From Verrucomicrobiia bacterium (GTDB lineage Bacteria; Verrucomicrobiota; Verrucomicrobiia; Limisphaerales; JAKPVM01), in NCBI GenBank assembly GCA_049968335.1, contig JBMFQZ010000020.1:3394-67393 (forward strand): 64,000 nt of DNA, given 5' to 3'. The translations under genes and the position numbers were made by a program. This document shows positions 4,951 through 44,479 of the stretch, one piece after another (within the stretch, counting starts at the first letter, position 1; each line of letters starts with the position of its first letter). The notes under the pieces were generated by a model, which searched no databases, was not told the origin of the DNA, and was given only the letters and a program-made list of their open reading frames with translations.

Positions 4951-5180
4951 TGTTTATCCATTGCAGGCTCTATTCAAACAACTGCAGTATTTGTTATAAG
5001 AAAACTATCAGAAATTTAACCTCACCCAAAAATGGACTTTTTCCCAAAATACTCAAGGTTCAAGTAATATTTCATCCCTTTTTTTATAATTAAAAATCGG
5101 TTGCTCTGCTAACAAATTGAGGATTAATATTGGTTTCTACTGGATGATTTTTATTTATGTTTATAAAAAGTTAAATATTT

Positions 5181-5786
5181 ATGAGAAGTCCTAAGAAGAT
5201 CGGCGACAAACGGTTTTTAAAACCGCCCCGAAGATGGCGGAAGGAAATTGACTTTGTTCTGATATCGGAAAGGCAACTTTCCACTCGTATAAAACAGATT
5301 GCCGCCGTGTTGGAGTCCGATTACAAAGGGCGCGAACTCACTATTATCGCGCTGTTGAGCGGGACAGTTGTATTTCTTGCTGACTTGGTGCGACGGCTTA
5401 ATCTCCCTTTACAGATAGATTTCTTCGGGATTTCAAGTTATGGCGATGGCACGGTTTCAAAAGAACCGACTATTACAAAAGACCTTTCGCTTGAAGTGCG
5501 CGGGCGCGATGTGCTTATTCTTGACGACATCCTTGACACTGGAAAGACATTGAACCTAACACTTAAAAAAATCGCTTCTCTTGAGCCGAATAGCGTAAAA
5601 ACCTGCGTTTTGCTGGATAAACCTGCCCGGCGATTAATAAGTATCAACGCCGATTATACTGGATTTGTAATTCCGAATTATTTCGTTGTTGGATATGGAC
5701 TTGATTTTGCGGAACGATATAGAAATCTGCCTTTTATAGGTGTATTAAAAAAGGAGTTGTATCAAACGGCAGGATGTTGTTTGTAA
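5181..5786 (+). CDS. hpt: Hypoxanthine phosphoribosyltransferase
   Basis: PRPP loop VLILDDILDTGKTL; LLDKP.RR and FVVGYGLDF.E.YRNLP motifs. Confidence 0.95.
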   Translation: MRSPKKIGDKRFLKPPRRWRKEIDFVLISERQLSTRIKQIAAVLESDYKGRELTIIALLSGTVVFLADLVRRLNLPLQIDFFGISSYGDGTVSKEPTITKDLSLEVRGRDVLILDDILDTGKTLNLTLKKIASLEPNSVKTCVLLDKPARRLISINADYTGFVIPNYFVVGYGLDFAERYRNLPFIGVLKKELYQTAGCCL

Positions 5787-5819
5787 TTATAATTAGAGAA
5801 TTTCGTCAAACACATTTTT

Positions 5820-7424
5820 ATGAATTACAAAAAGATAAACAAGATAACAACTATTTGTTTGATCGCGGGAATTGTCATCCTTGGCTGGATATTCAGGTAT
5901 TCAATGAATACTGACGCCGTCGCGTATATAAGGCTGGCTGAATATTACGCCAGCGGGAATTTTGACCTTGCGATAAGCGGATACTGGGGACCTTTGATTT
6001 GCTGGATGATGGCGCTGTTTATCAAACTCGGGATACCGCCGCTTTTTTCGGCGCGAATTGTAATGGGTATTTCTGCAATTGTTTTTTATTTTGCCAGCGA
6101 TTACTTTTTCAAACGTTCAAATCTTCGCGAGGAATGGGGCGCTGCGGGGAGATTGACCGCAGGTTGCGCAAGCCTTGTCTGGTCTGTTCAGCAAATCACC
6201 CCAGACCTATTAATGGCAGGTTTGTTAACATTTGCAGCAGCAAAAATTATACCTCAAACAAACGGGAAAACAGATTATGACTGGTTATTGTCGGGCGTAT
6301 TATTTGGCATCGGGTATTTATGCAAACCGGTTGCCTTTCCGATTGCGATTCTAATGATAGGATTGTTTTTGCTGATTGTCTTTATATCCGAGAGACACAA
6401 ATTTTTTACAGCATTAAAAGCGGCTGTGAAAATCGGCGCTGTATTTTTAATTATTTCCGGCTTATGGATAACCGTGTTATCGGTCAAGTATCACCGCCTG
6501 ACAATTACCACAAGTGCGGCGATTGCCCATTCAATTGCGGCTCCCGGAGAAAAGCCGGAACTGCACCCGTTTTCCATCGGTTTTCACAATCCGCAACCGG
6601 GCAGGATAATCGATTGGGAAGACCCGAGCAGGCTGCCGTACAATTTCTGGTCTCCAATCTCCAGCATTTCAAACCTGCTCTATCAACTTAAAGTGATCGG
6701 TCTTAACACGCTATTAATCATTGGAATGTTGTTTGGGTTGCATCCTGTTTTATTCATATTATGCTTTGCCACACTGCGCTGGATATTTAAATGGGGCGAC
6801 ACAGGATATCTGAGTTCAATGAGCTGGTTCAGACTGCTTGCCCCTGTTTTTGTTATATGCGTGGTTTATCTGCCTGTTCGGGTTTCAATAAAAGATGTCC
6901 GGTATTTTTACCCGGTGCTGCCATTTGTATTTTCAAGCGTGGCTCTGTTTTTCAGTATGCGAGTTGAATCCTGGAAATTGAAACGTCCCGGCACTGTTCG
7001 TTTTCTGCCATTATTTCTTGCAGTTGGAACAGCGTTAGTCCCGATAATCCCCGGCGCTATACAAACAATTCATTCCTATCAAGCCGGTCTATGTTCTCAC
7101 AAAATTGCAGAAGGCATTAAGAATTTAAACATCAGTGGAAATATAGCCGGAAGCGGTTTAATACCCGGCGGACGCGTCGGTGTTTTCACTGCTTTTTTAC
7201 TGAACCGCCCGTGGAATGGCGATTCGTTGAATCCAAAAATCGAAGAGGTAAAAAATGCGAACGCCTCAATCTTTATTGCCGCGGTTAACAGCCCCCTCTA
7301 TCAGTTTTTTCAAAAAAACTCGCAAGATTTTGAAGATATTACCGAGAAAATATTTCAAGCCGTCGGTTCTTCAAGCAGTTGCTCCAGTTTTGTTAAGGTC
7401 TTTTTGCTTAAATCTAAAATGTGA
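5820..7424 (+). CDS. Polytopic membrane protein, GT-C (ArnT/PMT-like) glycosyltransferase
   Basis: D...Y...A motif after TM1, YW.PL, TPD, G.GYL.K and RYF.P motifs; many hydrophobic helices. Confidence 0.6.
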   Translation: MNYKKINKITTICLIAGIVILGWIFRYSMNTDAVAYIRLAEYYASGNFDLAISGYWGPLICWMMALFIKLGIPPLFSARIVMGISAIVFYFASDYFFKRSNLREEWGAAGRLTAGCASLVWSVQQITPDLLMAGLLTFAAAKIIPQTNGKTDYDWLLSGVLFGIGYLCKPVAFPIAILMIGLFLLIVFISERHKFFTALKAAVKIGAVFLIISGLWITVLSVKYHRLTITTSAAIAHSIAAPGEKPELHPFSIGFHNPQPGRIIDWEDPSRLPYNFWSPISSISNLLYQLKVIGLNTLLIIGMLFGLHPVLFILCFATLRWIFKWGDTGYLSSMSWFRLLAPVFVICVVYLPVRVSIKDVRYFYPVLPFVFSSVALFFSMRVESWKLKRPGTVRFLPLFLAVGTALVPIIPGAIQTIHSYQAGLCSHKIAEGIKNLNISGNIAGSGLIPGGRVGVFTAFLLNRPWNGDSLNPKIEEVKNANASIFIAAVNSPLYQFFQKNSQDFEDITEKIFQAVGSSSSCSSFVKVFLLKSKM

Positions 7425-34831: not shown

Positions 34832-34970
34832 ATAAATGTTTAGTTGGTTACAAAAATACCTTCACAAATTCAATTTTAAGAAATTGCGCTTTTGGATGAA
34901 ATGAAATTGGATAAAGCATTTTATAATCAAAATTTAATGTTTAGAAATTACACCGACAGGGGCAAATACT

Positions 34971-35020
34971 TTTGGACTGCGGGAAAAGATTGCATAGCAA
35001 TCGCGACAGCTCTTTGTGAT
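34971..35020 (-). repeat. REP-like element, family A
   Basis: TTTGGACTGCGG...CGCGACAGCTCTTTGTGA, the reverse orientation of the 4901/17233 unit. Confidence 0.6.
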
Positions 35021-35300
35021 TTCAGACGGCGCAAAATTAATGGAATAAAAATAGAACATTAAATTTAATTTAATTACGAATATGGTATTTTACCCTGAAT
35101 CAATTGGACTTGCAAAATTGACAAGTTAAGTCTTAGAAGCCCAAAAAATATTATTTACAATGGTCTCGCGTAGTAGGCAGATGCTCTGCCGCCAACACAC
35201 CAAAGTATTTCTCCCCTTTTTAAAATAGCATTATATATCACTCGGTTCCAAAATAATACTTTGAATTTAGTGATAATGATTTGGGGATGACACGGAATTA

Positions 35301-38300
35301 GCTTTGCCTTGATTCCAATTTAGGATGGTGTAGAATAATACATATCGCCAGTCTATTTTAGGTGTGGCTTTGCCTTGATTCCAATTTAGGATGGTGTAGA
35401 ATAAAAACTATACCGAGTATTGCGAATTACTCGCTTTGCCTTGATTCCAATTTAGGATGGTGTAGAATCTTTATTTATTCTTCTGATATGTTCGCAATGC
35501 TTTGCCTTGATTCCAATTTAGGATGGTGTAGAATAGAGCAGTCAAGACGAGGCTTGGGTGACTTGCTTTGCCTTGATTCCAATTTAGGATGGTGTAGAAT
35601 ATATTCTCTTACCCACACACCACACATATTGCTTTGCCTTGATTCCAATTTAGGATGGTGTAGAATTGATAACGTTCTCATATTGTTATTGTTATCGCTT
35701 TGCCTTGATTCCAATTTAGGATGGTGTAGAATCCATTGACCAGCAGAAATTTTGTCAATCTGGCTTTGCCTTGATTCCAATTTAGGATGGTGTAGAATAT
35801 ACCCACCATCATTCAGTTTTACGCGCATGCTTTGCCTTGATTCCAATTTAGGATGGTGTAGAATAAGCACAGGACGACCGTTTATGTTTAGTTTGCTTTG
35901 CCTTGATTCCAATTTAGGATGGTGTAGAATACTTTATACCTTACATAATATTTATACTTAGCTTTGCCTTGATTCCAATTTAGGATGGTGTAGAATAAAC
36001 TCTTTAAAAGTAAGAACTCCCTCCTCGCTTTGCCTTGATTCCAATTTAGGATGGTGTAGAATCAGATGAATTTGCAAGAGAAGCCTATTATGGCTTTGCC
36101 TTGATTCCAATTTAGGATGGTGTAGAATCAGTGGACAAGATCACGGCACAGAAACCGAGCTTTGCCTTGATTCCAATTTAGGATGGTGTAGAATGCCAAA
36201 TCAGGCGTCAAAGCCACAACCTTAGCTTTGCCTTGATTCCAATTTAGGATGGTGTAGAATGCCCCCCATGAATTCAAAAGTCGCTAGAATTGCTTTGCCT
36301 TGATTCCAATTTAGGATGGTGTAGAATATTCTCTTCGCCAATAAACAGACAATTGCAGCTTTGCCTTGATTCCAATTTAGGATGGTGTAGAATGGCAGTG
36401 ACACTGTAGCGCTACCAGCGCCAGCTTTGCCTTGATTCCAATTTAGGATGGTGTAGAATGTATTCTCTCACCCATACACCTCTACTATCAGCTTTGCCTT
36501 GATTCCAATTTAGGATGGTGTAGAATCGACCATAGCCACAATAGCGGCTATGGTCAGCTTTGCCTTGATTCCAATTTAGGATGGTGTAGAATGTCATTAT
36601 ATGGCTATATGAAGAACGGCTGGCTTTGCCTTGATTCCAATTTAGGATGGTGTAGAATGCGATTGGCGTTCCGTATTGGAAAAAATTAGCTTTGCCTTGA
36701 TTCCAATTTAGGATGGTGTAGAATCCAACTCAGAAAACTACCATCATCCATTACGCTTTGCCTTGATTCCAATTTAGGATGGTGTAGAATAAAATCATTA
36801 AATACATTGCATAATTTTGGGCTTTGCCTTGATTCCAATTTAGGATGGTGTAGAATCCTGCTCCAGGCACACCAACAATGAGCTTTGCTTTGCCTTGATT
36901 CCAATTTAGGATGGTGTAGAATGCCCAACTAGAAAAAAATGGAATTGATAAGCTTTGCCTTGATTCCAATTTAGGATGGTGTAGAATTCATTGGTCTGTC
37001 TATACAGGCTTTGCTTATGCTTTGCCTTGATTCCAATTTAGGATGGTGTAGAATCGGCTTCAGCAGCGGCGACGCATACACGAAGCTTTGCCTTGATTCC
37101 AATTTAGGATGGTGTAGAATCTTGCGTGCCTTCGGAGTTAACCGCTTAGGGCTTTGCCTTGATTCCAATTTAGGATGGTGTAGAATCCAAAAAATTTCAA
37201 ATAACTGAGATTTTTGCTTTGCCTTGATTCCAATTTAGGATGGTGTAGAATGCCCGCGATCTTAGCTGTGACATAAGCACCGCTTTGCCTTGATTCCAAT
37301 TTAGGATGGTGTAGAATGTGCTACGCACGGACGCATATCACGCTAACGCTTTGCCTTGATTCCAATTTAGGATGGTGTAGAATACCAGCGATTGAGCAAG
37401 TTCAACTGAATTTGCTTTGCCTTGATTCCAATTTAGGATGGTGTAGAATTGCCAACAATTTAGGCACTTTCGAAATGCCGCTTTGCCTTGATTCCAATTT
37501 AGGATGGTGTAGAATCATCAAAGTAATGAGTATATTGATTGGCAGGCTTTGCCTTGATTCCAATTTAGGATGGTGTAGAATGGTAGGAATAGTCAGGCGC
37601 GTCATACGTGGGCTTTGCCTTGATTCCAATTTAGGATGGTGTAGAATACCAACAAAACAAATACTACCGGCAAAAACGCTTTGCCTTGATTCCAATTTAG
37701 GATGGTGTAGAATGCTTAATATTAGCAACACTACGCACACCAGGCTTTGCCTTGATTCCAATTTAGGATGGTGTAGAATATACCTTATAGATACACACGG
37801 AAAGGTATGGCTTTGCCTTGATTCCAATTTAGGATGGTGTAGAATCACAAAACCAATTGATTGATATATGATTACGCTTTGCCTTGATTCCAATTTAGGA
37901 TGGTGTAGAATGTATCCAACAGCCCAAAGCACAACGGCACTGCTTTGCCTTGATTCCAATTTAGGATGGTGTAGAATCCAGCTCCAGGCACACCCACAAT
38001 GAGCTTGGCTTTGCCTTGATTCCAATTTAGGATGGTGTAGAATCTCTCTGCCGAAGCGAGAAACAAGCCCTGCTTTGCCTTGATTCCAATTTAGGATGGT
38101 GTAGAATTCAGAAGCATCATCGAATCGGATGATGATGCTTTGCCTTGATTCCAATTTAGGATGGTGTAGAATACCCCAATAACAACCCTTGTATTTTACG
38201 CCGCTTTGCCTTGATTCCAATTTAGGATGGTGTAGAATTCATTGCGAATAAACCAATCCGATTCGTACGCTTTGCCTTGATTCCAATTTAGGATGGTGTA

Positions 38301-39688
38301 GAATAAGGGTTAATAGAAATTTCTTGATTGGATAGCTTTGCCTTGATTCCAATTTAGGATGGTGTAGAATCTTTCTCAACATCGCAAGCTTGGCGACGAC
38401 GCTTTGCCTTGATTCCAATTTAGGATGGTGTAGAATAACCCGTCCACACTTATAATTCACGTCTATGCTTTGCCTTGATTCCAATTTAGGATGGTGTAGA
38501 ATTCAACGAATCGTCAAGATTCGCGATTAACGGCTTTGCCTTGATTCCAATTTAGGATGGTGTAGAATACTTGCGATATCTGGTCAATTTCCTGTTCGGC
38601 TTTGCCTTGATTCCAATTTAGGATGGTGTAGAATCGAAATTGTTTCTCTATCAGACCTACATGCGCTTTGCCTTGATTCCAATTTAGGATGGTGTAGAAT
38701 ACAATTTGGATAATCCAGAGATCAATGTTGGCTTTGCCTTGATTCCAATTTAGGATGGTGTAGAATACGCGTATTACGTTGGTGAAAACGCTGCTTGCTT
38801 TGCCTTGATTCCAATTTAGGATGGTGTAGAATCTGGTTTTGCAATTAACGACTACCCACGACGCTTTGCCTTGATTCCAATTTAGGATGGTGTAGAATCT
38901 GTATTTGTCAACTAATCGCTGCAAATGCGCTTTGCCTTGATTCCAATTTAGGATGGTGTAGAATTAGCGTAATATCCATAACCATAGGCGCGGTGCTTTG
39001 CCTTGATTCCAATTTAGGATGGTGTAGAATAAGTGAAATAGGAATATATATTTGTCTATCGCTTTGCCTTGATTCCAATTTAGGATGGTGTAGAATTCAA
39101 TTTATATCGCTGGTCCATTCAGAATGGCTTTGCCTTGATTCCAATTTAGGATGGTGTAGAATTGCCGCAATACCTGTATCCTCCAGGACTCTGCTTTGCC
39201 TTGATTCCAATTTAGGATGGTGTAGAATCATTTCCAGAATTTGCAAGTCGTCCAGGTCGCTTTGCCTTGATTCCAATTTAGGATGGTGTAGAATGACGCG
39301 CTGATTGCGAGCCAGGGCACGGGAGCTTTGCCTTGATTCCAATTTAGGATGGTGTAGAATCCTTGCTATTATTATCATTCTCCCCTTGAGGCTTTGCCTT
39401 GATTCCAATTTAGGATGGTGTAGAATCCTGCATTTCCTCGCCCCTCCATGTTCTAGCTTTGCCTTGATTCCAATTTAGGATGGTGTAGAATAGAACAACA
39501 AATAAACATGCCAGAGGTTCGGCTTTGCCTTGATTCCAATTTAGGATGGTGTAGAATAGAATAACTATAGTTATTCTCGGTTATACAGCTTTGCCTTGAT
39601 TCCAATTTAGGATGGTGTAGAATGATTATTTAGGCTTAATAGATTAAATAATGCTTTGCCTTGATTCCAATTTAGGATGGTGTAGAAT
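35301..39688 (+). CRISPR. Type II-C CRISPR array: 67 identical 36-bp repeats (GCTTTGCCTTGATTCCAATTTAGGATGGTGTAGAAT) and 66 spacers of 28-31 bp
   Basis: Counted unit by unit: 67x36 + 1976 spacer nt = 4388 bp. The + orientation is inferred from tracrRNA complementarity. Confidence 0.98.
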
Positions 39689-39726
39689 GGCAGTTGGTAA
39701 CCTACTGATAAACAGGGGGTTACCAA
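39689..39726. promoter_or_regulatory. Short CRISPR leader between the array and cas2
   Basis: Only 31 bp separate the last repeat from the cas2 stop; an inverted repeat TTGGTAACC/GGTTACCAA overlaps the stop codon. Confidence 0.6.
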
Positions 39727-40055
39727 AATTGTAATTGTTCGGGCAGTTTCTCCGGCTTAACAGGTTTAGCCGGTTTTCCGTAAACGATGAATGATCTTTC
39801 CCATTGGGCTTTTGTAATAAAAATTGCCCTTACAGTTCCTTCCGGAGGCAAATTTTTCTTCACCCTTTCGATGTGGGTATATTGTCTTGCGAATGAAACG
39901 CACGGTCGAATATAAACGCTCAGTTGGATCATTATGTAGCCATCGTCTATGAGGAATTTTCTAAAATTTGTTGCGGCTTTTCTTTGTTCGGGAGTCAATA
40001 CCGGCAGATCAAATGCGACAAGCAACCATCCCATCTTATAGTTCTCCGATGCCAT
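39720..40055 (-). CDS. cas2: CRISPR-associated Cas2
   Basis: MGWLLVAFDLP, FRK.L..DGY.M.Q.SVY.R, LPP.G.VR...IT..QW and QLQFW motifs; start moved to MASENYK. Confidence 0.95.
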   Translation of the reverse strand: MASENYKMGWLLVAFDLPVLTPEQRKAATNFRKFLIDDGYIMIQLSVYIRPCVSFARQYTHIERVKKNLPPEGTVRAIFITKAQWERSFIVYGKPAKPVKPEKLPEQLQFW

Positions 40056-40068
40056 TTTAGTTTTAAAA

Positions 40069-40986
40069 TTAAATCTCGTTGTCAGGGATCTTTTCTTTGT
40101 TGATATACCACGGGCGATAATATTTTGCTTGTTGCTCAATAATCGCCCTGCGGAATCCCCTTAAAACGCATTCAATACATCCTCTGATTTCCAGTTTTAG
40201 CGAAAAATATTCGACCCGTTCTATGACAAACCCGGTTACCCACTTTCTGAATTCTTTAGTCACTTCAATAGGGTTATTATTATTTATCCATTGGATAACT
40301 CGCCAGTCTACGCACGGTCTAAAAGGCTCCATTAAGTCATAAGCCAGCGGTACGCTTCGTTCGCGTGGCACGTGAGAAATACCGAATGTCGGGTCTAATC
40401 CGAGGGCAAACAATTTTTGCAAAATTGTGGATAACAAAACCGCATAACCGTAGTTCAATAGATTGTTCATCCCGCCACCTTCGCGCTCCCGTTTGAATTC
40501 GCTTGAATTTGTTGCCGTTCCGATTATTTGCCAGTATAACTTGGCGCAGGTGGCTTCTTTGCTTTGTATTCTGGATGTTGCTGTATCTTTCAATAAATGT
40601 AATTTCGGATGGTCTGGCGCAAACTTTTCGCATAACGCAAGCTGATTTTTGCATTTTGCGTCAATTGTCTTTCGCCACAACAGCGCTTTAAATTTTTCTG
40701 GTGTATTAATTAACGCGCGGGTAAGCAATGTATCGGTGGAGCGATTAGCTGGTAGTAGCAGGCTTACAGGCTTAAACGCTTCGCAAATTATAAGTGTTAC
40801 GCCATATTTTGCCGCTTCCAATATCAGGTTGCTATGAAGAACAGCAGAAAAGCTAGTGACGATGATTGATGCAACATCTTCCAGCGGAAGGGAGCGCACC
40901 TCATCTTGCGTTTTGCACACAAGTTGACCGTCTTTACAGGATATTGAGCATTGTGGCGCGTCAATATTTACTATGTGATAAGACAT
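40069..40986 (-). CDS. cas1: Type II Cas1
   Basis: PLEDVA, K..NQ, EA..A..YW, N.LLNYGYAVL, GI.H and L.YDLMEPFRP.VD motifs; overlaps the cas9 end by 16 bp. Confidence 0.96.
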   Translation of the reverse strand: MSYHIVNIDAPQCSISCKDGQLVCKTQDEVRSLPLEDVASIIVTSFSAVLHSNLILEAAKYGVTLIICEAFKPVSLLLPANRSTDTLLTRALINTPEKFKALLWRKTIDAKCKNQLALCEKFAPDHPKLHLLKDTATSRIQSKEATCAKLYWQIIGTATNSSEFKREREGGGMNNLLNYGYAVLLSTILQKLFALGLDPTFGISHVPRERSVPLAYDLMEPFRPCVDWRVIQWINNNNPIEVTKEFRKWVTGFVIERVEYFSLKLEIRGCIECVLRGFRRAIIEQQAKYYRPWYINKEKIPDNEI

Positions 40987-43900
40987 GCATTGATGCCTGT
41001 ATATGGAGTATTAAGAAGTTTTAAGCCATCCTTTATAAGTGTAGATAATAATACATTAATTTTATGCCCTTCCATTTTATTTTTTAATCGAACAGTATCA
41101 GAATAACCCATATCTAAAGAAAGTCCTGTTTCATTTTCTTTTAAAGAAAACACTTTCCAAACGCCTTTATATCTGCCCTTAGGGACAAAGATTAATTGTC
41201 CTTTTCTTAGAATTCTGGGAGGTTTTCCGTCGTTTGCTTTTCTTATTTCTTGAACTTGCTTGTAGATTTTTAATGCCCTTATTACCTGCGGTTTTGGGTC
41301 CAGCGCTAATCCCCAGTTTTCCCCTATTTTTTTAACTGCTTTTAATTTCTTTAATTTTCCGTCACCATTTTCAGGATATAACCCAATGACCTTTGATTTT
41401 TTGACTATTTCGTATTGCCACCAGAAAGTATTAGTTTCATGCAAAATCTTTGTTGGCGCTTGCGTTCCTTTGTCTTTACGAGTCCGAGATACTATCAAAA
41501 CTGAATCGGAGTCTGGACCTGGGACTTCGATATTCTTTGCTTTGCACCAGCGCAGTAATTTTCTGCCATACGGATTGTCTGTATTTTGTTCAACAACTCT
41601 CCAGGCTGTTTCCTCGCATTTGAGCCCGCTCATATCTTTGGATATATGCTGGACAACACGACGCTCAAGCAGTCGGTTAGATATTTGTTCTTTTATAAAT
41701 TCCGGTAAGTCTGAGATGTTGATTTTATTATCAACGCCGACTTGAACCAATGGGATTTTTTTTAGTTCATCTACCTCGCTGGAATTTAATTTATTTTTGA
41801 CTAATAATTCCCATAGTCGTCCGTTGTTTGGGAAAAGATGCGATGCAAGCGCAAGCACACAAGCATCTACAGCGTGGTGGAGATGTGTAATATTTCTGAT
41901 TTCATCTTTTGGACGCACTTCGCCGTTTTCATCGAGAATAGCCGGTACTGCCTTGCTCAAGCATCCAATAACTTTCCATGATTTTCTAAAAACGGCAGTA
42001 ACTGAGCCCGGCATACTGACAATTTTGGGTTCTTTTGAATCAACATATTTTTTGCGGATTACCTGCGCCGCCAAGCGCACTAATTGAGAGGTCTGTGTTA
42101 GGTCGCGTGGTAGAAATTCTTCTTGAACGTATTCTGGTAATAATAGCAATTTTTTCCGTTTTGATTGTGGTGATTTATTTCTATCAAATCCGGATTCTTT
42201 CAGATTCTCCACCCAATTTTTATAATTTTCTAAAGTCCTAATTTGTAAATTTGGTAAACCCTTAACTGTTTTTGTTTGTTCCTCTTTTACAAACTGAAAA
42301 GCTAATCTCTGAGCCTTAAATCTATTTACCTCGGGGAACGTTATGACAAGTGACTCAAGCGAATTTGAAGGTCTAATAGATTGCGGAATGATGTGGTCAA
42401 GGTCAACGCGTTTCTCAAGAAGGTCATAAATATCGTACTTTTGTCCAGTATAAGGACAAGTCCAATCTAAATCCATTGCAATCCTCGTCTTGCGAATCAA
42501 TGAAGCCGTAATTTTGTGTTTTGTCCCTTTAAGGTTTTCTTCTAAGTCCTGCACGGCTTTTCTATGGTCTGCAGTGATTTTTGTTAGTTCTGATGCTATT
42601 TCTTTGGCGGTTTTACCGGAAAATTCTCGTAAATCTCTATTAACTTCGATTGTTACCTGACCTATACGATTTTTGTCGTTATTTGCGTATTCCTTGACAA
42701 TATCGTCAAATAAGCGTTCAAGTATTAATAGACGATGACGAATTAAATGATTGTTTGTTTGTTCGGTTATTTTTCTATTTAATTCTTTAAGCCTGATTTC
42801 TTCAGAGCGAAACAGACAACCGCCTTTTTCTCTTGGATCGCGTCCCTGTAAAACTTCTTCATAAGCCTTTTTTAAGATTGTCTTACTGAAAGGCGCTCTT
42901 CCTTGCAGCGCTTTAAGTGGATTGTCGGGTATTTTGCTTTCCAGATAATTTTTTTCTTTTTTATTCATCTTCAAAAATTCTGCGACTGCAGAATCAAAAT
43001 CTTTAACCTTTTCGGGGAACAGTTTTTCAAGATAATCCCGTATTTCCTTCGGAGTTAATTGTTTCCCCCGACGAAACATACCGGCAAATTTTTTCTGTAA
43101 TCGCTCTGGCAGAATATTCCAAAAGACCTGCACTTTCTCTGAGTTTATTATTTTTTTGACAGGATAAAGTGTTAGGGCTTTTTCCATATCTTCAGTCAAA
43201 AACATTGCGGAAATATTAGTGAGAATTACAGGAATTCCGTTGTAATTCTCGTTTTTGAGTGTTTGCATTACTGCGTCGTTTACTGCTGTTCTTAATTCAT
43301 GTTTTGTAAAAAAGCCCTTCTTTTCCATGATTCCATTTATGTATTCCCTTTCATTAACATTAAGTGGACGCTCTTTAGAACCATTTACCTTTACGCGAAT
43401 ATTACAAAGAAGCATTGCCCATCTATATCGGTAAAATTCAACACATTCTTTCAATGTAAGCTTTTCGCCAGAAATCGGACATCTTGCAATATTTCGATTA
43501 TTAAACCGAGGCAAAAGTTGTCCAAATAGCAAACTGCCATAATACCTCTTAGGTAGATTTATAGAGGGGCATGGAATAGTTTTCCATGAATTTTCTTTAT
43601 CACCTGTAAGAGTCTCCACCAATTGTTCGGAAACCTGCGGCAATTTGCCAATATGTTTCTTCAGAATTTCTCTTACCTCTCTTACAACCACGTTGCGAGG
43701 AAAAGCGATATCTGTTCCTTTGTATCTTAAATGGGTCGACCTTTTATTGGTACTGTGAGGGTCAACTCCGAGCATCTTGCAGACTGTTTCTGCCATTGAA
43801 CCGCATTTATATTCTTGCATTAATTTCCGGGCGTTTTCTACCCGTTCACTTTCATCTTCTTCCCCTTCAGCTGGTATTTCGCTCCATAACCTGTTTTCAT

Positions 43901-44330
43901 CATAACCCCGATTATGGGCATACCATCTCAGGACATCCCATAATTCCTGCCAGCTCAAGAGACGTACGTTTTGCAAGACCTCTGCGGCGAGTTTCCATGG
44001 ACTTGAATTTCCCGGTTTATCAAGTTCGGTTTCAGTTAAAACCCCCAAATGAAGTAAAAGGGCTTTCATCCGTTTAATTCTCTGGCGAGTGGTGCGAATA
44101 TGGCGGCGTTGTCGTCTGTAATCACGTCTTTTTTTGGCGAGGCAAGTATCTGGTTCAAAAATCACCACACCACAACCAATTATTTCTGGATAAAAGTATT
44201 CAGCTACATTTTGGGATTCTTGGGAAGTTTTTCTGGATAATACTGCCCATCCGATAGAACTATGTCCCACGTCAAAGGCAACCTCCAGTTCCCTATTTTC
44301 CACCGTGTTTAGAAAATTTTCTACTTGCAT
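40971..44330 (-). CDS. cas9: Type II-C Cas9, 1119 aa
   Basis: RuvC-I FDVGHSSIGWA, Arg-rich bridge helix, RuvC-II IEVNR, HNH CPYTG...DHIIP...VN.FK and RuvC-III HHAVDA; no csn2 or cas4 in the operon. Confidence 0.97.
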   Translation of the reverse strand: MQVENFLNTVENRELEVAFDVGHSSIGWAVLSRKTSQESQNVAEYFYPEIIGCGVVIFEPDTCLAKKRRDYRRQRRHIRTTRQRIKRMKALLLHLGVLTETELDKPGNSSPWKLAAEVLQNVRLLSWQELWDVLRWYAHNRGYDENRLWSEIPAEGEEDESERVENARKLMQEYKCGSMAETVCKMLGVDPHSTNKRSTHLRYKGTDIAFPRNVVVREVREILKKHIGKLPQVSEQLVETLTGDKENSWKTIPCPSINLPKRYYGSLLFGQLLPRFNNRNIARCPISGEKLTLKECVEFYRYRWAMLLCNIRVKVNGSKERPLNVNEREYINGIMEKKGFFTKHELRTAVNDAVMQTLKNENYNGIPVILTNISAMFLTEDMEKALTLYPVKKIINSEKVQVFWNILPERLQKKFAGMFRRGKQLTPKEIRDYLEKLFPEKVKDFDSAVAEFLKMNKKEKNYLESKIPDNPLKALQGRAPFSKTILKKAYEEVLQGRDPREKGGCLFRSEEIRLKELNRKITEQTNNHLIRHRLLILERLFDDIVKEYANNDKNRIGQVTIEVNRDLREFSGKTAKEIASELTKITADHRKAVQDLEENLKGTKHKITASLIRKTRIAMDLDWTCPYTGQKYDIYDLLEKRVDLDHIIPQSIRPSNSLESLVITFPEVNRFKAQRLAFQFVKEEQTKTVKGLPNLQIRTLENYKNWVENLKESGFDRNKSPQSKRKKLLLLPEYVQEEFLPRDLTQTSQLVRLAAQVIRKKYVDSKEPKIVSMPGSVTAVFRKSWKVIGCLSKAVPAILDENGEVRPKDEIRNITHLHHAVDACVLALASHLFPNNGRLWELLVKNKLNSSEVDELKKIPLVQVGVDNKINISDLPEFIKEQISNRLLERRVVQHISKDMSGLKCEETAWRVVEQNTDNPYGRKLLRWCKAKNIEVPGPDSDSVLIVSRTRKDKGTQAPTKILHETNTFWWQYEIVKKSKVIGLYPENGDGKLKKLKAVKKIGENWGLALDPKPQVIRALKIYKQVQEIRKANDGKPPRILRKGQLIFVPKGRYKGVWKVFSLKENETGLSLDMGYSDTVRLKNKMEGHKINVLLSTLIKDGLKLLNTPYTGINACLIT

Positions 44331-44357: not shown

Positions 44358-44479
44358 TTGGAATCAAGGCAAAGTTAGATAACGCAGACCGTGCCTCTAT
44401 TCCGCAAGGCGGATACGCCGGTTTGAAAAAAGCGTTATTTTAAAAAACCATCGGCGCCCTACCGATGGTTTTTATTTTT
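44358..44479 (+). ncRNA. tracrRNA
   Basis: TTGGAATCAAGGCAAAGT (44358-44375) is complementary to repeat nt 1-18 (17 WC + 1 G:U). It is followed by nested stems and the terminator AAAAACCATCGG/CCGATGGTTTTT. Confidence 0.88.

Follow-up and report, generated by a model that had tools for sequence, protein, structure and literature searches.

Spacers of a type II-C CRISPR array in a Verrucomicrobiia bacterium probably derive from variants of a small filamentous phage

The closest described counterpart of the system considered here is the type II-C CRISPR-Cas system of Neisseria meningitidis, together with the MDA phage and the Nf prophages that it faces. Interference by that system against MDA phage is dependent on a protospacer adjacent motif (PAM) and proceeds with spacers of either sense (PMC12477760), and Neisseria was an outlier in the share of its spacers directed at inoviruses in the survey of Roux et al. 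2019 (PMC6813254). The same survey reported 10,295 inovirus-like sequences and 1,150 inovirus-matching spacers, the latter from 42 bacterial families and one archaeal family and from three CRISPR types; for Verrucomicrobia its supplementary file 5 lists 4 predicted inovirus species, validated by integrated prophages, and its supplementary file 4 includes an 11.8-kb Opitutaceae element among the Verrucomicrobia inoviruses. Here we describe a type II-C locus in a 64,000-nucleotide (nt) stretch of DNA from a Verrucomicrobiia bacterium (contig JBMFQZ010000020.1 of assembly GCA_049968335.1; hereafter the window), in which a CRISPR array of 66 spacers is accompanied by cas9, cas1, and cas2. With a probability that we put at roughly 0.85, at least 9 of the 66 spacers (5, 9, 18, 24, 29, 32, 41, 47, and 51) have their origin in a small filamentous phage, variants of which infected this lineage again and again. 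The source genes would be those for the Zot/pI assembly ATPase, a rolling-circle replication protein (Rep), a coat-like open reading frame (ORF), and the ORF that follows Zot.

The locus resembles that of Neisseria in its cas9-cas1-cas2 genes, its predicted trans-activating CRISPR RNA (tracrRNA), its 36-nt repeats and 30-nt spacers, and the large share of spacers against inoviruses; the 3′ end of the repeat, TAGAAT, resembles a −10 box, as in the repeat-embedded promoters of the Neisseria system. It differs in the phylum of its host and in a repeat that is unrelated in sequence. The phage also differs, since Nf/MDA phage is 8 kb, whereas the type inferred here is much smaller, with units of ∼4.5 to 4.8 kb. 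The relatives that we use as proxies, of which the IMG/VR contig L094 is the most informative, are marked by pI/Zot, as are the Verrucomicrobia inoviruses of Roux et al. 2019. In contrast, the spacers from a Verrucomicrobia array among the rows listed in supplementary file 7 of that study are two of type I-C against a Thauera inovirus, and no type II-C array is linked to an L094-type phage among the rows listed in its supplement (PMC6813254). Among the papers listed by a literature search on inoviruses, Verrucomicrobia, and spacers, none is on the topic by title or abstract. Verrucomicrobia are already known from the literature to have inoviruses, and spacers against inoviruses have been published too, notably for the Neisseria type II-C system; the record that the array likely provides is real but of an ordinary kind. 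An earlier note on this DNA, made from the sequence alone, had called such phages little characterized in Verrucomicrobiota, a statement that the 4 predicted species mentioned above qualify.

Two pairs of spacers each point to a single site. Spacers 24 and 41 agree at 27/30 positions without gaps, where in 30 shuffled spacer sets the top pair of each set agreed at just 16 to 19, and the reverse complements of both read KLIVGVPGA in frame 2, followed by GG for the final glycine. Three third-position changes separate them: one at the final base of the codon before this reading, one GTT/GTG, and one GCA/GCT. Spacers 5 and 18 agree at 22/30 positions (73%), which exceeds all 30 shuffled maxima, and GVWVREY is common to both readings while the residues outside it differ; judged by these readings, they appear to be a second pair from one site in diverged variants. 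Because two sites were taken twice, the probable Walker A site of Zot by spacers 24 and 41 and the Rep site by spacers 5 and 18, more than one variant was met. The earlier note had numbered and placed its spacers exactly, and its identity, translation, and third-position differences for spacers 24 and 41 were reproduced, as was its reading of spacer 51 (HVGLIEKQF followed by CG, for R). From these it had proposed that the host met at least two variants of a filamentous phage with a Zot/pI-like ATPase and acquired one protospacer twice. The synonymous differences agree with that proposal, to which the spacer 5/18 pair is added, and the assignment to Zot and filamentous phage is supported mainly by matches that lay outside the note, namely those of spacers 47 and 29 and those to Rep, the coat-like ORF, and the post-Zot ORF.

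The firmest single piece of evidence comes from spacer 47. Scoring used a profile of 120 Zot homologues, and 100 shuffled spacer sets served as the control (best score per set: median −1.8, 95th percentile 0.6, maximum 2.2 bits). Spacer 47 reached 14.7 bits at profile positions 135 to 144 and is decisive alone. Spacer 51 (0.8 bits, positions 151 to 160) and spacers 24/41 (0.4 bits, positions 5 to 13) are borderline, the latter because GVPGAGK is a generic motif. The spacer 47 peptide, LSQHRKLGDD, occurs exactly (10/10) in 36 of the 120 homologues and is identical to the signature of Zot/pI ATPases in Verrucomicrobiota prophages and small metagenomic contigs. A scan with the back-translated peptide found 2 IMG/VR, 32 metagenome, and 6 GTDB contigs; in 34/34 of the IMG/VR and metagenome contigs this sequence is part of a Zot-type ORF, with YLSQHRKLGDD..Q....DKxFR as its context, and 6/6 GTDB contigs share this motif context. 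The block after Walker B, composed of SQHRKLGDD and Q....(D/E)KQFR, is represented by spacer 47 (10/10) and by spacer 51, which agrees at 8/10 both with L094 (HYQLIEKQFR) and with the homologue P0067 (HVGNVEKQFR). At the N-terminal Walker A, KLIVGVPGAG would correspond to Zot residues 3 to 12, with 7/10 to L094 and 8/10 to TLICGVPGAG of P0122 (MITLICGVPGAGKS), a relative 69% identical to the L094 Zot.

The spacer peptides were compared with six-frame translations of L094, L097, and L098, the closest relatives found among the 44 Zot loci that a profile-guided IMG/VR scan returned. All nine spacers lie in frame within coding-strand ORFs of L094-type contigs (Table 1), five of them in Zot (24, 41, 47, 51, and 29), two in Rep (5 and 18), one in the coat-like ORF (32), and one in the post-Zot ORF (9). 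Spacer 5 also matches L094 at 21/22 nt, and among the 19 IMG/VR stretches found with back-translated GVWVREY, only that of L094 is an in-frame Rep; the remaining stretches have stop codons nearby and were set aside as chance. In the 100 shuffled spacer sets, matches of at least 8/10 occurred at a mean of 0.03 per set and matches of 7/10 at a mean of 0.84, and none reached 9/10, so the 10/10 of spacer 47 and the 9/10 of spacer 29 were never attained. With reversed and triplet-shuffled decoy genomes, 0 to 3 spacers attained 7/10 or more and 0 to 1 attained 8/10 or more, where the real contigs had 11 and 4, respectively. Of the 91 nucleotide mismatches between the nine spacers and L094, 49 are in the third position of a codon. 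The gene set expected of an inovirus (Zot, Rep of PF23343, and a coat-like ORF) is hit by the spacers, by proxy, on one 4.5-kb contig, L094; the real protospacers would likewise share one replicon. The Pfam test for Zot that the earlier note had suggested for the ORFs hit by the spacers was passed by the L094 Zot, well above the PF05707 cut-off of 20.3 bits (Table 1). Three further spacers were considered and not counted, all being within shuffled levels: spacer 39 (VIIYQSIGFV), at 7/10 to VCITQSIGNV of other Zots; spacer 57, with 15 exact nt and SEIGI in the C-terminus of the L094 Zot; and spacer 8 (MRVKLNDGGY), which is similar to LSDGR, a C-terminal motif. On the 3′ side, the flanks read NNNAT at 4/7 proxy sites on L094 and 2/6 on L097/L098, which is insufficient for a PAM claim.

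Table 1. Coordinates of the spacers, the CRISPR-Cas locus, and the genes of the proxy contig L094
Feature	Sequence	Coordinates	Strand	Reading or identification	Match or score
Spacer 5	window	35601..35630	-	reverse complement NMCGVWVREY; rolling-circle Rep gene of L094-type inovirus	L094 Rep, just before H-x-H motif, 7/10
Spacer 9	window	35865..35894	-	reverse complement KLNINGRPVL; N-terminus of small ORF just after Zot	start of post-Zot ORF, 7/10 to L094:3984 and 7/10 to L097:3978, same gene position
Spacer 18	window	36460..36490	-	reverse complement DSRGVWVREY; same Rep site as spacer 5, more diverged variant	L094 Rep, just before H-x-H motif, 7/10
Spacer 24	window	36857..36886	-	reverse complement KLIVGVPGAG; probable Zot N-terminal Walker A	Zot residues 3-12, 7/10 to L094, L097, L098
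Spacer 29	window	37187..37215	-	reverse complement KNLSYLKFFG	L094 Zot residues 140-149, 9/10 residues, 21/29 nt
Spacer 32	window	37384..37413	-	reverse complement NSVELAQSLV; 53-residue coat-like ORF	8/10 to L094:918, 7/10 to L097:914
Spacer 41	window	37978..38007	-	probable Zot Walker A site of spacer 24, 3 synonymous differences	Zot residues 3-12, 7/10
Spacer 47	window	38371..38400	+	forward frame LSQHRKLGDD; Zot signature motif	Zot, 10/10 in L094, L097, L098
Spacer 51	window	38635..38664	-	reverse complement HVGLIEKQFR; Zot motif six residues past spacer 47 motif	L094 Zot residues 121-130, 8/10
Spacer 14	window	36195..36224			own contig C14, 23/30, 22 contiguous bases
Spacer 40	window	37912..37941			own contig C14, 29/30
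Spacer 52	window	38701..38730			own contig C14, 27/30
Probable leader	window	34832..35300	+	AT-rich, non-coding, 469 nt; at array end far from cas genes	
CRISPR array	window	35301..39688	+	67 identical 36-nt repeats (GCTTTGCCTTGATTCCAATTTAGGATGGTGTAGAAT), 66 spacers of 28-31 nt	
cas2	window	39720..40139	-		PF09827, 58.6 bits
cas1	window	40069..40986	-		PF01867, 120.9 bits
cas9	window	40971..44330	-	1119 residues	HNH_4 57.4 bits, RuvC_III 39.3 bits
Predicted tracrRNA	window	44358..44479	+	anti-repeat 44358-44374, then GC hairpin and T-run 44448-44479	
Rep	L094	350-829		ORF2/G2P	PF23343, 34.5 bits; phrog_3419
53-residue ORF	L094	891-1052		probably coat-like; hydrophobic core and basic tail	
532-residue ORF	L094	1024-2622		no identification	
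111-residue ORF	L094	2574-2909		no identification	
Zot	L094	2912-4042		morphogenesis (protein I of M13)	PF05707, 69.9 bits; phrog_1675
97-residue ORF	L094	3975-4268		no identification	

Several results weigh against this assignment. The true protospacers and the phage itself are absent from all collections searched. With their three variable bases left open, spacers 24/41 gave 0 matches in IMG/VR, 0 in Joint Genome Institute (JGI) metagenomes, and 0 in 60 relatives at ≤3 mismatches; exact searches with spacers 47 and 51 gave 0 matches in IMG/VR; and back-translated KLIVGVPGAG gave 0 in IMG/VR and 0 in GTDB contigs, zeros that stand, as the scanner handles degenerate patterns (the spacer 47 pattern gave matches). 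The whole array had no match beyond chance level in 50,697 phage records, the 4 records returned all showing one 29/32-nt match (E = 5) in Acinetobacter phage tail-fibre genes, which we attribute to chance. Against 400 genomes of the order, matches appeared in 74/400, apparently through repeat similarity of related arrays, and the sole exact spacer-length match was to the own contig C14. The own genome contains no Zot gene, its best score (13.6 bits) belonging to an AAA_22 protein, and weak matches on its contig C6 (spacer 45 at 24/30, spacer 9 at 23/30, and spacer 29 at 22/29) fall in permease and FMN reductase host genes and were dismissed as chance. The nearest relatives are only 57 to 77% identical to the spacers at the nucleotide level, and the gene assignments therefore rest on 10-residue peptides. 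Taken singly, the 7/10 matches of spacers 24/41, 5/18, and 9 are no better than what is expected by chance roughly once per spacer set; the profile scores of spacers 24/41 and 51 are close to the shuffled maxima, on either side of their 95th percentile; and among the 11 spacers at 7/10 or better, spacers 6 and 7 match the non-coding strand and are attributed to chance.

An explanation that we regard as unlikely, while it survives better than the others, is that only some of the flagged spacers are inoviral: spacers 24/41 would come from another P-loop gene (a helicase, kinase, or plasmid ATPase), and Zot would hold for spacers 47, 51, and 29 only. GVPGAGK is generic, FVTGVPGAGKT being the reading of Schlafen-type helicase ORFs (PF09848) in the order of the host; spacer 41 shares 17 exact bases with one of these ORFs (L039), and the 0.4 bits of the pair on the Zot profile fall below the 95th percentile of the shuffled-set maxima. 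The Walker A motif from which the earlier note had argued is therefore thin as a basis, even though the conclusion drawn from it is supported. On the other hand, KLIVGVPGAG fits the extreme N-terminus of the L094-type Zot, including the hydrophobic run before the glycine in the 8/10 match to P0122, the first 150 residues of the same Zot protein receive four other spacers, and no other gene encoding KLIVGVPGAG was found in the own genome, IMG/VR, or the GTDB species genomes. Several ORFs of 665 to 698 residues with FVTGVPGAGKT in the same order (L035, L038, L039, L041, L043, L047, and L051) barely exceed the Pfam Zot cut-off. Despite its Pfam Zot match, L039 proved to be a helicase of Schlafen group 3 (PF09848, 263 bits), and low-scoring Zot hits in genome scans therefore need checking.

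Less probable still is a source other than a free virus, namely an element of inovirus origin that had become defective or domesticated and carried Rep and Zot, whether as an integrated remnant or as a replicon resembling a satellite or plasmid. Zot ORFs of the family do occur on large chromosomal contigs of related genomes (G336:C2, of 3.26 Mb, and a 188-kb contig), the case for a free virus is built from sequences, and L097 contains two tandem, partly overlapping units (140-1046 and 4953-5867) ∼4.8 kb apart that are only 79 to 89% identical. The L097 units could be two co-assembled or tandem variants of a small inovirus, as opposed to exact terminal redundancy. Against an element of this kind, the targeted set of a replication gene, a coat-like gene, an assembly gene, and a downstream ORF covers the whole layout of an inovirus genome, most homologues are on contigs of ∼4.4 to 8 kb, the size of whole inovirus genomes, and L066 (11.2 kb) and L071 (8.6 kb) have terminal direct repeats of 127 nt and 45 nt, respectively, as in assembled circular genomes. 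Moreover, the synonymous divergence between the duplicated spacers points to genes under purifying selection. It is scarcely credible that chance, or the composition of short AT-rich sequences, produced the peptide matches: ungapped nucleotide identities to L094-L098 (21-23/30) are indeed not above those of shuffled spacers, and 7/10 peptides do arise by chance, but nine matches that are all in frame, in real ORFs, and on one strand, with mismatches enriched at third codon positions, are not so explained, and the profile, shuffled-set, and decoy controls already contradict it.

If the nine spacers were acquired from a filamentous phage, as we favor, their CRISPR RNAs (crRNAs) would direct Cas9 to cleave matching phages in their double-stranded replicative form, by analogy with the Neisseria system and MDA. 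The spread of the nine spacers over array positions 5 to 51 suggests encounters over time, and the host range of L094-type phages would include this genus. Known inoviruses carry their genes on the strand that is packaged, and single-stranded DNA is cut by some II-C Cas9 enzymes. We consider it a long shot that a clade of unusually small inoviruses, with units of ∼4.5 to 4.8 kb (L094, L097, and L098), here receives its first assigned host, a Verrucomicrobiia genus, and that a strand bias of the spacers reflects selection on this II-C Cas9 to encounter the phage in the form of single-stranded DNA or transcript in addition to the double-stranded replicative form. Eight of the nine spacers (six of the seven sites) are antisense to the coding strand, i.e., their crRNAs are complementary to it. 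This strand bias is suggestive at most, as both senses work in the Neisseria experiment (PMC12477760).

The assignment would tie uncultivated, very small inovirus-like contigs to a Verrucomicrobiia host where nucleotide-level spacer matches are absent from the collections searched. A heavy type II-C investment against filamentous phages, known in Neisseria, would now extend to a distant phylum, and the two protospacer sites apparently reacquired from diverged variants are consistent with lasting host-phage conflict. As a method, spacers that lack a database match may be assigned to a virus family by comparing them as peptides with family profiles, using shuffled controls. Knowledge of how such systems work is unchanged.

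L094 itself is a contig of 4489 nt (GC content 0.35) with all sizeable ORFs on one strand, and its Zot reads MITLVCGVPGAGKS ... YLSQHRKLGDDVIAISQHYQLIEKQFRQLVQESIFLKNLSYIKFFG. The coat role of the 53-residue ORF is suggested by its size, hydrophobic core, and basic tail. Compared with the Ff phages of Escherichia coli (M13, f1, and fd, with pI, the gene II protein, and the gene VIII coat), the Zot and Rep of L094 belong to the same families, and its genes share one strand, on which Rep is followed by a small coat-like ORF, a large ORF, and then Zot; it differs from them in very low sequence identity, in a smaller genome unit, and in that no secretin (pIV) gene was seen among its ORFs or in Pfam and PHROG scans. 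M13 pI has the same HxRKxGxD and QxxxxxDKQxR motifs. L066 and L071 show the same one-strand gene order as L094 (G2P-type Rep, small ORFs, large ORF, and Zot), and the Zot of another locus, L070, scores 60.1 bits on PF05707. Among genomes of the host's own order, Pfam Zot exceeded the cut-off in 21/401, and it was not found in the 2 other genomes of the genus. The Zot ORFs of the order start with M-x-[IV]-x-F-I-x-G-x-P-G-x-G-K-[ST] and carry FYLSQHRKLGDD..TQ....VDKQFR. Of the six GTDB contigs with the spacer 47 peptide, five are titled Verrucomicrobiota metagenome-assembled genomes (MAGs) and one Baltobacteraceae; this last contig, L135 (DATKFW010000121.1), has a Verrucomicrobiota-type Zot motif and is binned as a Candidatus Baltobacteraceae MAG, a placement that could reflect either a binning error or a wider host range.

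The CRISPR-Cas locus itself is of type II-C, as seen in its cas9, cas1, cas2, and anti-repeat. Neither csn2 nor cas4 is present among the ORFs adjoining cas9-cas1-cas2, by the ORF list and Pfam, and the gene set is therefore that of type II-C. The anti-repeat, just upstream of cas9, is an exact 17-nt complement of repeat bases 2 to 18; the predicted tracrRNA lies between cas9 and an esterase gene and runs opposite to cas9, in the same sense as the crRNAs. The anti-repeat thus sets the + strand of the array as the crRNA sense, and the AT-rich stretch before the array is therefore the likely leader, with spacer 1 likely the newest, by analogy with the Neisseria type II-C system (PMC12477760). 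The further neighbors are the esterase and a sulfatase on one side and, on the other, an ORF of 334 residues without a Pfam family, and an NHL protein.

A second invader may be recorded in the same array. Three non-Zot spacers (14, 40, and 52; Table 1) imperfectly match a ∼4-kb stretch of the own contig C14 (C14:83456-87235, i.e., L001:12457-16236), in which small same-strand ORFs without family follow a BamB-like gene and continue up to a ParB_N gene that is truncated by the end of the contig. The stretch contains no Zot and no Rep and has no match in the phage records. This stretch probably represents a relative, resident in the genome, of a second invader unlike the inovirus; mismatches or the lack of a PAM would explain why it is tolerated. 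One of its ORFs, of 248 residues, resembles the N-terminal domains of phage primase-helicases in Atlas, a lead only.

Repeats related to those of the array, 64 to 78% identical over repeat-spacer units, are found in many genomes of the order (G008, G121, G114, G109, G150, and others; loci L008-L026), and by this sequence similarity the repeat family appears to be widespread in the order.

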